Shown here piece by piece: positions 48,601 to 51,600 of a stretch of 64,000 bases of DNA; within the stretch, counting starts at the first letter, position 1, and the number at the start of each line of letters is the position of its first letter. Made by a program: the position numbers. The DNA lies in NCBI RefSeq assembly GCF_048403405.1, contig NZ_CP183129.1. One strand, given 5' to 3'. The stretch comes from Escherichia coli (GTDB lineage Bacteria > Pseudomonadota > Gammaproteobacteria > Enterobacterales > Enterobacteriaceae).

Positions 48601-51600
48601 GTGCAATTGAAATGTGATAATTATCACTGAACCGTTGTTGTCATTTGTTTTACAAAAGCAAGGGATTAAATCTCCTCCAATGGACAAAAAAATGAATAAT
48701 GACAATACCGATTACTTGAGTAATGAATCAGGGACGCTTTCGCGATTATTTAAACTACCTCAGCATGGGACCACCGTCCGCACAGAATTGATTGCGGGGA
48801 TGACCACTTTTTTAACCATGGTGTACATCGTTTTTGTGAACCCGCAAATCCTCGGCGCGGCACAAATGGACCCGAAAGTGGTGTTTGTTACCACCTGTTT
48901 GATTGCCGGTATCGGCAGTATTGCGATGGGGATATTTGCTAACTTACCCGTGGCGCTGGCTCCGGCAATGGGGCTGAACGCCTTCTTTGCGTTCGTGGTC
49001 GTGGGGGCGATGGGTATCTCCTGGCAGACCGGGATGGGCGCGATATTCTGGGGCGCAATTGGGCTATTTTTGCTCACGCTATTTCGTATCCGTTACTGGA
49101 TGATCTCCAACATTCCATTAAGTTTACGTATTGGTATCACCAGCGGAATCGGATTATTTATCGCCTTAATGGGATTAAAAAATACTGGCGTTATTGTCGC
49201 CAATAAAGACACCCTGGTGATGATTGGCGATTTAAGTTCTCACGGCGTGTTGTTAGGTATTTTAGGGTTTTTTATTATAACCGTGTTGTCATCACGTCAT
49301 TTTCATGCCGCGGTGCTTGTTTCTATTGTGGTGACGTCTTGCTGTGGATTATTTTTCGGTGATGTTCATTTTAGCGGCATCTATTCCATTCCGCCTGATA
49401 TTAGCGGCGTCATTGGTGAAGTAGATTTGAGCGGCGCGTTAACACTTGAACTCGCCGGTATCATTTTCTCCTTTATGCTGATCAACCTATTTGATTCATC
49501 AGGAACATTAATTGGTGTAACTGATAAAGCTGGCTTAATAGATAGTAACGGTCAATTCCCCAATATGAATAAGGCGCTGTATGTTGATAGCGTCAGTTCG
49601 GTGGCAGGCGCATTTATTGGTACCTCATCTGTTACTGCCTATATTGAAAGTACTTCTGGTGTGGCGGTCGGTGGTCGCACGGGGCTGACTGCGGTTGTGG
49701 TCGGCGTTATGTTCCTGTTGGTTATGTTCTTCTCACCGCTGGTGGCGATGGTTCCTCCTTACGCAACCGCCGGAGCGTTAATCTTTGTTGGCGTGCTGAT
49801 GACCTCAAGTCTGGCGCGCGTTAACTGGGATGATTTTACCGAATCGGTGCCTGCGTTTATTACCACGGTGATGATGCCCTTTACTTTCTCGATCACCGAA
49901 GGGATTGCACTCGGCTTTATGTCGTACTGCATCATGAAAGTGTGCACCGGGCGCTGGCGCGATCTGAACCTGTGTGTGGTGGTGGTCGCAGCTCTGTTTG
50001 CACTGAAGATTATTCTGGTGGATTAGTAACTGGCGAGGGTTTCCAGATATCATGAGTTCTGATTACGCAGGAGAACTCATGATCTGGATAATGCTCGCCA
50101 CGCTGGCGGTAGTGTTTGTGATTGGTTTTCGGGTGCTGACATCCGGGGCCAGAAAAGCGATTCGCCGTCTCAGCGATCGGCTGAATATCGATGTCGTACC
50201 CGTGGAGTCGATGGTCGATCAAATGGGAAAGTCAGCCGGTGACGAATTTTTACGTTATTTGCATCGTCCGGATGAGTCGCACCTGCAAAACGCCGCGCAG
50301 GTGCTGCTCATCTGGCAAATTGTCATTGTCGATGGTAGCGAACAGAACCTGCTGCAATGGCATCGGATTTTACAAAAAGCCCGCCTTGCCGCTCCCATTA
50401 CCGATGCTCAGGTCAGGCTGGCGCTGGGTTTTCTGCGCGAAACCGAACCTGAAATGCAGGATATTAATGCTTTTCAGATGCGCTATAACGCGTTCTTTCA
50501 GCCTGCCGAGGGCGTTCACTGGCTGCATTAAAACCGCTTCGTCTTATCAGCCTACAGACCGCGCCTGACCTGTAGGGTGGATAAGGCGTTCACGCCGCAT
50601 CCGGTATCGGAACTGACAGTAGGTGAACGCATTATCTACGTTCTATTTACAGCAGCACCTCCAGCCCGTGTTTTTGCACAATGCTGAGCAGTTTTAATGA
50701 AATGCCATTGGGGCGTTTAGCGCCACTTTCCCATTTTTGTACAGTTGAAACGCTGGTATTGAGATAGTGAGCGAAGACGGGCTGACTCACTTTTAATTTT
50801 TCCCGCAGTGCTTTTATCTCAACAGGTTGTAAGTCTTGCACGCTGGTCAGGCAGGCTTTGTCAAAAGTACGCATCGTTTCAGCAGAAATCGCATCGACGC
50901 TGGACAATCCAGCCGCTGCGCTGTGAATAGCCTCAAATGCAGGACTTTTAAATTTAGTTTTTGCAGTCATAGCAGATCTCTGTCAGTTCTTTAGTGTTAA
51001 TCATTGCTGTTAGTTGGGCTTTCGTCAGGAAGGCATAATGCTTTGCAAGTTCACGAAACCCAGCCAGTTCCTGACTATTGATGTTCGACATATCCTGTTT
51101 TGCATATAAAAACGTGTAAAACCAATTGCTTCCTCCTTTCGCCAGAATAATTGCACGCTCACGATTTTTGTGAAGGCGCTTTTTAAAAAAGCCACCACCA
51201 AGTACATCAGCTTTACCTTGTTCCGTTTCTAAAATGGCCCGGCACAACTCTTCATCTGTTATTGCATGAGACCTGGCTTCCCTTGCAAACCATTTGGTTT
51301 TAAACACGCGCATATCGTTGAGATCCTGTTATTAAAGTATATTACCAAGTGCAATACTTTATCCCTTATTCCCAACACAATCGCGAAAATACATATCACC
51401 TTGCCCTATGATTTTTATTTCTTCGAGCAGCCTCGAACTTTTCCCACGACACCGTAAAAGTTGCAAAAACGTTAAATGCGTCACACATTTCAATGTTAAA
51501 GTGGTCGGCTTTTCCCCTGAAACATGCCACGGGTAACACCATGAGTGAATTTATTGCCGAAAACCGCGGCGCGGATGCCATCACCCGACCGAACTGGTCA

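Follow-up and report, generated by a model that had tools for sequence, protein, structure and literature searches.

A probable HigB2/HigA2-family toxin-antitoxin operon beside nepI in Escherichia coli, and its apparent loss by deletion from most strains

From the analysis of a 64,000-nucleotide stretch of Escherichia coli DNA (contig NZ_CP183129.1 of assembly GCF_048403405.1; hereafter the window), we propose that the two small genes located between yicN and nepI probably constitute a chromosomal type II toxin-antitoxin operon of the HigB2/HigA2 family, comprising a PF06296 toxin and an XRE helix-turn-helix (HTH) antitoxin, with the mechanism and history described below. The evidence points to an ancestral pair which has been vertically kept beside nepI and lost by one deletion, and not to a recent gain. 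The pair is of an ordinary, already known kind. Both genes already carry a RefSeq annotation as a type II toxin-antitoxin pair; within the family, structures have been solved and two members characterised, and the ortholog in Salmonella has been named, with partial functional data. A study of the E. coli pair itself was not found in the searchable literature.

The sequence-only reading described two small overlapping minus-strand open reading frames lying after yicN and before nepI, and their coordinates proved to be exactly as described (Table 1). Between yicN and the antitoxin gene, nucleotides 50579–50603 represent a canonical REP, matching the REP consensus exactly; nepI starts at nucleotide 51541. 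The overlap between the toxin stop and the antitoxin start suggests translational coupling, and a similar geometry was observed in most of the 80 related loci compared. The toxin ATG at 51313, with AGGA upstream of it, is the start common to the relatives, while RefSeq selects a GTG two codons further in, giving a product of 117 amino acids. ACAGGAT is kept upstream of the toxin gene in Enterobacterales loci. In the window annotation the neighbours of the pair are adeD, adeQ, yicN and nepI, and no integrase or defence genes are found among them; a promoter/terminator scan revealed no terminator at the pair. Profile matches, purifying selection and conserved pairing rule out chance open reading frames for both genes.

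Table 1. Features of the toxin-antitoxin locus, in window coordinates
Feature	Position	Strand	Basis or description
Toxin gene, 119 aa	50954–51313	minus	HigB2-like RelE-fold protein (predicted fold), PF06296
Antitoxin gene, 107 aa	50647–50970	minus	XRE-HTH protein
Toxin stop/antitoxin start overlap, 17 nt, ATGACTGCAAAAACTAA	50954–50970	minus	ORF coordinates and sequence
Shine-Dalgarno-like AGGA, 10 nt ahead of toxin ATG	51324–51327	minus	sequence
Candidate operator TTGCAC-TTG-GTAATA, a degenerate family palindrome	51340–51354	minus	conserved palindrome, coordinates read from sequence
Escherichia-specific extended inverted repeat TAAAGTAT-N13-ATACTTTA, enclosing the operator-like site	51333–51361	minus	inverted-repeat scan
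Likely -10 hexamer TATACT	51336–51341	minus	analogy with Coxiella PtoxP TTGACA-17-TATAGT
Toxin codons E-T-E-Q-G-K corresponding to the 19-nt relic in the K-12 allele	51211–51229	minus	17/19 identical, same orientation
REP/BIME-like elements between yicN and antitoxin gene, also in K-12	50540–50603		exact REP match, inverted repeats, MG1655 alignment
REP-like remnant directly past the antitoxin stop, within the K-12-absent segment	50623–50639		inverted repeat, 88% complementary to REP at 50577–50593

The first gene had been regarded only tentatively as RelE/HigB-like, and this assignment is now firm. HMM analysis of the 119 amino acid protein revealed Pfam family PF06296 "RelE" (E=5.5e-40), with residues 1–113 aligned to model positions 1–120, that is, over its full length; toxins of this family are termed 'PF_RelE' in PMC11980606. 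This was the sole Pfam match at E <= 10, there being none to PF05015 (Rts1-type HigB), PF09907 (K-12 HigB/YgjN) or PF05016 (K-12 RelE/ParE), and no match was found in NCBIfam. From these profiles the toxin is assigned to the HigB2/HigA2 family and not to that of Rts1 HigB, K-12 HigB/YgjN or K-12 RelE. An AF2 model of the toxin, which is a predicted and not a solved structure (pLDDT 84, pTM 0.77), was screened against the PDB using Foldseek. The top ten matches were all to Vibrio cholerae HigB2 (VcHigB2; prob 0.98–1.00, TM 0.47–0.61), followed by YoeB, YafQ and HigB1, and the modelled protein has the RelE/ParE (BECR) fold. PDB sequence searches, whether queried by the single toxin or by a 35-sequence profile, revealed no relative; the link to HigB2 is drawn from Pfam, the predicted fold and a weak hhalign match. 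The latter places VcHigB2 residues K49/R51/R64/Y82/K84, identified as the active site in PMC5416850 and PMC10098735, opposite toxin residues K44/R46/R53/Y70/K72. In the toxin family alignments there is no or almost no variation at R46, R53 and K72, while K44 is invariant in two alignments and nearly so in a wide one; position 70 holds Y or F, the catalytic Tyr being replaced by F in many family members (consensus LFAK). The subfamily also contains a C-terminal helix and strand (residues 98–115) in which E112 is invariant and C114 near-invariant.

The antitoxin matches HTH_3 (E=1.2e-7) as well as the MqsA-antitoxin HTH in Pfam, and its best PDB match is to V. cholerae HigA2 (VcHigA2; 5jaa_A, E=8e-10, residues 46–102). 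By these alignments residues ~46–102 form a C-terminal XRE helix-turn-helix. It did not reach the NCBIfam cut-offs for NadS and MqsA (41 bits vs 60–62) or YiaG (29 vs 110), and its relatedness to these proteins is confined to the HTH. The N-terminal segment, approximately residues 1–45, is presumed to be the toxin-binding part. It contains the motif KFKSxAFEAIHSAA...TMRxFD, which is kept across phyla together with the toxin, and in an AF2 model of the fused toxin and antitoxin (pTM 0.72, no contact map) the antitoxin N-terminus is predicted as two helices with pLDDT 82–95. The order proposed at the outset, in which a RelE/HigB-like toxin gene precedes that of an XRE-HTH antitoxin, is supported.

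The two genes are also found together elsewhere. In 79 of the 80 related loci, which were gathered with a narrower family alignment and derive from Proteobacteria, Acidobacteria and Gemmatimonadetes, the toxin gene is directly trailed by a homologous antitoxin gene, and the lone exception ends at a contig edge. In comparisons with other Escherichia lineages dN/dS ranges from 0.06 to 0.19 over both genes (0.15–0.18 for the toxin and 0.06–0.08 for the antitoxin), and by this measure purifying selection acts on both; in some comparisons within E. coli the toxin value is ~0.5. Relatives occur on plasmids (175 PLSDB records), and in one closely related clade the pair adjoins a tyrosine-recombinase-like gene.

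Upstream of the toxin gene, the palindrome TAGCAC-N3-GTGCTA was located over the -10 region in 76 of 79 loci, compared with 0.001 expected per 160 nt, and its G12 is invariant in all 76 sites. Its position resembles that of the HigA2 operator, which has been mapped to a stretch beginning past the -35 and spanning the -10 (PMC11006873). The copy in the window has three mismatches to the family palindrome, including a change of the invariant right-half-site G to A at base 51343, and this allele is present in only six E. coli genomes. The candidate operator reads TTGCACTTGGTGATA in the common E. coli allele, TTGCACTTGGTAATA in the window clone and TAGCACCAGGTGCTA in the family consensus. The extended inverted repeat which encloses it is also kept in other Escherichia lineages. 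A consensus promoter scan made no call ahead of the toxin gene, and our promoter proposal is based upon cross-species conservation instead. The relatives possess an extended -10 of the form TGnTATAGT/TATACT, the TG of which is lost in the window (TAATATACT).

The sequence-only reading had described such modules as accessory. This holds only in that the cassette is carried by 1716 of 5426 complete E. coli genomes (32%), always once, on the chromosome and at the yicN-nepI junction; it does not hold as a statement of recent acquisition, the pair being an old resident at nepI. The same survey revealed the K-12 'empty' allele in 3668 genomes and no copy of the cassette on E. coli plasmids. In the MG1655 alignment, 47 bp of K-12 stand opposite an 842-bp segment of the window (50607–51448) that K-12 lacks, and no convincing target-site duplications or terminal repeats flank this segment. 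The pair adjoins nepI in Escherichia, Salmonella, Klebsiella and Citrobacter, and the K-12 allele retains 19 nt of the toxin gene as a relic. The score of this relic was reached by 3 of 2000 shuffles, both of its differences are synonymous in the toxin frame, and it is identical in a diverged background; a single origin followed by recombinational spread would be compatible with that identity. Based upon the synteny in other genera and the relic, a recent insertion of the 842-bp segment was rejected in favour of a deletion. We therefore propose that the pair is an old nepI-side resident of the Enterobacteriaceae, and the evidence points to a single deletion through which about two thirds of E. 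coli, including K-12, are without it. Occupying a common core-genome site in four genera, the pair is not island cargo.

That this pair is toxic, cleaves mRNA, is neutralised and represses itself is inferred, mostly by analogy with characterised relatives. Both genes would be transcribed as a single mRNA from a promoter ~25–50 bp upstream of the toxin gene, with probable coupling of translation through the 17-nt overlap. Free toxin would most likely enter the ribosomal A site, cleave mRNA and stop translation, relying on K44, R46, R53, Y70 and K72. The antitoxin would dimerise by its C-terminal HTH and hold the toxin by its conserved N-terminal segment; alone or together with the toxin, it would bind the TAGCAC-N3-GTGCTA-type palindrome over the -10 and repress the operon.

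Several other explanations were considered. That the module of the window clone is attenuated or decaying, its genes being intact but its toxin weakened, its regulation disturbed and the whole near-neutral baggage, is unlikely. The window toxin carries V42F, A37V and Q49K, V42 being otherwise nearly invariant in the family, and the change of the invariant operator G also removes the extended -10 TG; with the operator core, the TG and V42 all mutated, this copy may be altered in regulation or activity. Other E. coli show signs of decay or loss: the toxin gene is frameshifted beside an intact antitoxin gene in CLSC36, the cassette is degraded in HS-02, the toxin ATG has become ATA in O157:H7 and others, two thirds of the genomes have lost the pair, and the toxin dN/dS within E. 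coli noted above indicates relaxed constraint. Yet neither open reading frame is truncated, the toxin has its complete set of catalytic residues, dN/dS against the other Escherichia lineages is low, and the arrangement has been kept since before the divergence of Escherichia, Salmonella and Klebsiella. It is quite unlikely that the toxin acts on another target, perhaps through its C-terminal helix and strand, since none of the five HigB2 catalytic residues is missing and Coxiella ToxP, which has an equivalent C-terminal extension (alignment to residue 151), blocks cell-free translation (PMC10098735). RelE-fold toxins with other targets do exist, SehA inhibiting RNase III (PMC12817084) and ParE being stated to inhibit DNA gyrase by poisoning (PMC11980606), and both the absence of the extension from VcHigB2 and the F found for the catalytic Tyr in many family members would fit such a role; SehA, however, is from a different family and is without the HigB2 catalytic residues. 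We give little credence to the broader proposal that the widespread PF06296 subfamily with this C-terminal helix and strand, which includes our pair, is not a simple kill-and-rescue mRNase module, the toxin acting on something besides A-site mRNA or requiring a partner, and the HTH protein neutralising only in cis, by way of the overlapping frames, or chiefly regulating. If true, it would account for the failure of the Salmonella antitoxin RelB3ST, supplied in trans, to neutralise RelE3ST (PMC4366850), and for the pair staying beside nepI since before the three genera split.

The suggestion, made from the sequence, of a part in phage defence or island stabilisation received no support, and we consider a main role in anti-phage abortive infection or the stabilisation of a mobile island to be very unlikely. 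Some weight is lent to it by the discussion of type II modules of the RelE/ParE superfamily as defence toxins (PMC11980606), by a match of the antitoxin to phrog_2104 (E=1e-26), a family of phage proteins whose function is unknown, by the plasmid-borne relatives, by the plasmid maintenance of Coxiella ToxP/AntitoxP and by the recombinase-like neighbour in a close clade. PADLOC, however, returned 0 families for the toxin and only generic HTH matches for the antitoxin, and the sole 'phage' record with a match proved to be a Salmonella chromosome contig. The neighbouring genes are of the housekeeping kind, and the single core-genome site and the absence of an E. coli plasmid copy likewise argue against it. 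It is extremely improbable that, rather than being a dedicated antitoxin, the HTH protein serves chiefly as a transcription factor for the divergent nepI or for other genes. Adjacency to nepI across the four genera, the RelB3ST result and the retention by K-12 of an orphan relative, YiaG (a weak NCBIfam match), could be read in that way, but the pairing with the toxin is kept in taxa without an adjacent nepI, the palindrome is situated at the toxin promoter, ~190 bp away from where nepI begins, conservation of the N-terminal segment goes along with that of the toxin across phyla, and AntitoxP binds ToxP (PMC10098735). A toxin-antitoxin operon of the HigB2/HigA2 family remains our preferred reading.

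As a discovery this matters little, and its by-products are modest. They include a natural presence/absence polymorphism, in which 32% of E. coli have the cassette and a single deletion allele, with its toxin relic, is shared. This suggests that vertical inheritance can maintain a toxin-antitoxin pair on the chromosome over very long times, and that the pair can yet vanish without trace of harm. There is also a sharply defined candidate operator, kept from Acidobacteria to E. coli, of which the window clone is a natural point mutant, as it is of the -10 region. The E. coli alleles could help to settle why the Salmonella HTH partner failed to neutralise its toxin in trans.

Among the known systems, K-12 RelB/RelE belongs to the same fold superfamily but differs from the E. 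coli pair in its antitoxin-first order and PF05016 toxin; K-12 RelB is a ribbon-helix-helix antitoxin. The active-site layout of RelE resembles that of HigB2 (PMC5416850). Rts1 HigB/HigA, K-12 HigB (YgjN)/HigA and SehA/SehB resemble our pair in that the gene of a RelE-superfamily toxin comes first and the antitoxin has an HTH, but are members of other Pfam families (PF05015, PF09907), and Rts1 HigA, unlike the E. coli antitoxin, is a fully structured single-domain protein (PMC5416850). Acinetobacter HigBA2 and 'DUF1044/RelB' were likewise set aside, the characterised A. baumannii HigB2 being a Gp49-domain toxin and not PF06296.

V. cholerae HigB2/HigA2 (PDB 5JAA, 8A0X), also PF06296, provides the best structural match to the E. 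coli toxin, with the five active-site residues conserved, and VcHigA2 has the architecture of the E. coli antitoxin, an N-terminal binding segment followed by a C-terminal HTH. VcHigB2 is only ~22% identical, covers only PF06296 model positions 8–96 and is without the last helix and strand. The VcHigA2 operator is a single inverted repeat spanning the -10 but of different sequence (TGTACGC-N5-GCGTACA), and the Vibrio pair, unlike that of E. coli, resides in a superintegron. ToxP/AntitoxP (CBUA0028/CBUA0027) of Coxiella burnetii pQpH1 is a pair which has toxin-first overlapping genes and a PF06296-type toxin with a C-terminal extension, and for which translation inhibition, a toxin-antitoxin complex and promoter binding have been shown (PMC10098735). 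Its promoter contains a CAC-N3-GTG core between the -35 and -10, as in the family palindrome. AntitoxP shows 55% identity to the E. coli antitoxin over residues 5–106, whereas ToxP shows only 31% to the toxin and has a Lys/Gly-rich beta2-beta3 loop which the latter lacks; the Coxiella pair is plasmid-borne with a role in plasmid maintenance, while that of E. coli is chromosomal.

SehA/SehB was rejected as the Salmonella homolog: SehA is 40% identical to K-12 HigB, residues Y53, R54, K56 and H88, among others, do not fit, and sehB, at more than 429 nt, is longer. The true Salmonella ortholog is STM3777/STM3778. This pair, relBE3ST of Salmonella Typhimurium (RelE3, STM3777/SL3743; RelB3, STM3778/SL3744), is a direct ortholog encoding a 119 amino acid toxin and a 107 amino acid Xre antitoxin, with 68% and 81% identity to the E. 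coli proteins, respectively. It has an equal 17-nt overlap geometry and is divergent from nepI. Overexpression of RelE3ST lowered cultivability (PMC4366850). Against our preferred reading stand the failure of RelB3ST to neutralise it in trans and a paper since retracted, and to be treated with caution, which counted STM3777 with the toxins that are not strongly toxic in E. coli. The loci differ in their far flank, a sugar-utilisation cluster in Salmonella versus yicN in the window, and in their operators: that of Salmonella, TATCAC CTG GTGCTA, deviates from the consensus by one left-arm base, whereas in the window the right-arm GTG core is mutated.

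The two genes between yicN and nepI are real and intact, carry annotation already, and belong to a known family of toxin-antitoxin pairs. The window comes from the Escherichia coli chromosome, and six complete genomes (e.g. TUM14771 and MS 69-1) are 100% identical to it over 1.2 kb. The sequence-only reading had described two overlapping minus-strand ORFs with REP sequences nearby, and this description is accurate; the ORFs share a 17-nt overlap (Table). RefSeq labels them "type II toxin-antitoxin system RelE/ParE family toxin" and "helix-turn-helix domain-containing protein", respectively. 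The ORF beyond nepI contains many Ig-like repeats and is named inverse autotransporter adhesin IatC by RefSeq, while in K-12 and O157:H7 yicS directly follows nepI.

Table. Features in and around the yicN-nepI junction (window positions)
Feature	Position	Strand	Remarks
yicN stop	50531		flanks the pair
REP element	50579-50603		canonical; between yicN and antitoxin ORF
Cassette	50607-51448		842 bp; replaced by 47 bp in K-12
REP-like remnant	50623-50639		just past antitoxin stop, in the K-12-absent segment; complementary to REP at 50577-50593
Antitoxin ORF	50647-50970	minus	107 aa
Toxin ORF	50954-51313	minus	119 aa
Extra C-terminal helix and strand of toxin	50969-51022		residues 98-115; invariant E112, near-invariant C114
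Toxin segment matching the K-12 relic	51211-51229		19 nt
Toxin start codon variant (ATG to ATA)	51311		in some strains
Operator-like site TTGCAC-TTG-GTAATA	51340-51354		
Private operator base	51343		A in place of G; position counted on the plus strand
nepI start	51541		flanks the pair
IatC ORF	52927-62601		3224 aa

The idea that the pair is an acquired accessory module is contradicted by its synteny with nepI across genera and by a relic of the toxin gene in K-12. The order nepI, toxin, antitoxin also occurs in other Escherichia lineages, six Klebsiella species, Citrobacter amalonaticus and Salmonella. Toxin identity between E. coli and Klebsiella is 65-69% and antitoxin identity 78-81%, a divergence comparable to that of the flanking genes (yicN 67-71% and nepI 79-83% for most Klebsiella species, with K. 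indica higher throughout). The left boundary of the K-12 deletion falls at the REP cluster listed in the Table. Within the 47 bp of K-12, which lie in its yicN-nepI spacer (locus L001, 5741-5950), 19 nt match the toxin gene in the same orientation with 17/19 identities, a score reached by 3 of 2000 shuffles. Read in the toxin frame, both mismatches are silent, and a strain 3% different from K-12 in its flanks has an identical relic. We therefore conclude that the pair is ancestral at this site and that the "empty" allele arose by a single deletion long ago. Of 5426 complete E. coli genomes, 1716 have the cassette as a single chromosomal copy and 3668 have the K-12 allele. A third, rare allele was found in the soil isolate SC434 (L088), where a larger deletion takes the 5' end of nepI.

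The family also has mobile members. Relatives reside on plasmids of rhizobia, Coxiella, Legionella and others, though plasmid and phage match counts need caution, since two "plasmid" records (4.9 and 5.4 Mb) are chromosomes and K. aerogenes "plasmid 12" bears the chromosomal genes uhpT and nepI (odd matches: H76, H77, L091 and L090). A clade of the pair with 91-96% identity across Pectobacterium, Erwinia, Serratia, Edwardsiella and Enterobacter (L006, L013, L019, L022, L026 and others) carries a 292-amino acid tyrosine-recombinase-like gene (weak XerC match) approximately 1 kb upstream of the toxin, which suggests that a small integrative element may spread it. The roles in phage defence and island stabilisation raised for the E. 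coli pair found no support: the toxin has no PADLOC match, the sole "phage" record matching the pair is a Salmonella chromosome WGS contig, and the surrounding genes serve adenine and nucleoside transport and metabolism.

The 119-amino acid toxin gives a full-length match to Pfam PF06296 ("RelE"; E-value 5.5e-40), bearing out the tentative RelE/HigB-like call; searches of Pfam, NCBIfam and PADLOC gave no other match. PF06296 is the family of Vibrio cholerae HigB-2 (PMC11980606), and the HigB2 sequence of PDB 5JA9 was assigned to it here as well. PDB sequence searches with the E. coli toxin or the family profile found no relative. An AlphaFold2 model built from 35 homologs was confident (pLDDT 84), and HigB2 took all ten top places among its PDB matches, ahead of YoeB, HigB1 and YafQ. 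HigB2 activity requires K49, R51, R64, Y82 and K84 (PMC5416850, PMC10098735), which a profile alignment places on K44, R46, R53, Y70 and K72 of the toxin; of these K44, R46, R53 and K72 show little or no variation across the family. Unlike HigB2, the toxin and most PF06296 members possess an extra C-terminal helix and strand.

The XRE-type helix-turn-helix recognised in the 107-amino acid protein spans residues 50-100, and its closest solved relative is V. cholerae HigA2 (E-value 8e-10). Within the N-terminal 45 residues, the motif KFKSxAFEAIHSAA...TMRxFD is shared from Acidobacteria through to E. coli. When toxin and antitoxin were modelled with AlphaFold2 as a linker fusion from a paired alignment (pTM 0.72 overall), this segment formed two confident helices, consistent with a putative toxin-binding role.

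A scan taking one genome per species returned 80 related loci from Enterobacterales, Beta- and Alphaproteobacteria, Acidobacteria and Gemmatimonadetes. In 79 of these a full-length antitoxin homolog begins at the toxin stop or slightly ahead of it, the remaining locus being interrupted by a contig end. The palindrome TAGCAC-N3-GTGCTA (up to two mismatches allowed; background rate 0.001 per 160 nt) lies 15-58 nt upstream of the first aligned toxin codon in 76/79 loci, its core CAC-N3-GTG invariant among the sites found, and terminates in an extended -10 of the TGnTATAGT type. In Coxiella a perfect TTGACA and a TATAGT flank it. The footprinted HigA2 operator occupies the same position, starting past the -35 and reaching across the -10 (PMC11006873). 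We infer that the palindrome is the antitoxin's operator. Two short contigs (L004, L043) in a "Collinsella sp." MAG carry E. coli-type and Klebsiella-type pairs, very likely through bin contamination.

Purifying selection acts on both genes, with dN/dS values against other Escherichia lineages of 0.15-0.18 (toxin) and 0.06-0.08 (antitoxin). Decayed alleles do occur. In CLSC36 the toxin is frameshifted and the antitoxin intact. In O157:H7 (L084, LSU61) and some other strains (L085, L083) the toxin ATG is ATA, leaving as sole start a GTG two codons downstream and far from the Shine-Dalgarno sequence, so that translation may be attenuated. The HS-02 cassette (L083, 2995-3756) is degraded, only 79% identical with many substitutions and indels, and could reflect local hypermutation, an imported decayed allele or an assembly artefact; the HS-02 flanking genes carry ordinary E. 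coli protein accessions. The window's own operator-like site has A where 76/76 related sites have G (GTG to GTA), which also abolishes the TG of the extended -10; other E. coli read GTGATA at this half-site, and the window allele is confined to the six window-identical genomes among complete E. coli. The toxin of this clone has three private changes (A37V, V42F and Q49K), one at a nearly invariant position.

Most likely, the toxin would cleave mRNA in a ribosome-dependent manner and be restrained by an autoregulating helix-turn-helix antitoxin. Our literature search turned up no work on the E. coli pair; a 2025 in silico survey describes relE-yiaG-type PF06296 modules. The Salmonella ortholog, STM3777/STM3778, is relBE3ST (SL3743/SL3744). 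RelE3ST overexpression lowered cultivability in Salmonella, and RelB3ST supplied on a second plasmid did not neutralise it (PMC4366850). In a paper that has been retracted, STM3777 is grouped with toxins that were not strongly toxic in E. coli. For the Coxiella burnetii plasmid pair ToxP/AntitoxP, toxicity, rescue, translation inhibition, toxin-antitoxin binding and promoter binding were demonstrated experimentally (PMC10098735); the E. coli antitoxin is 55% identical to AntitoxP over nearly its full length, and the toxin 31% identical to ToxP.
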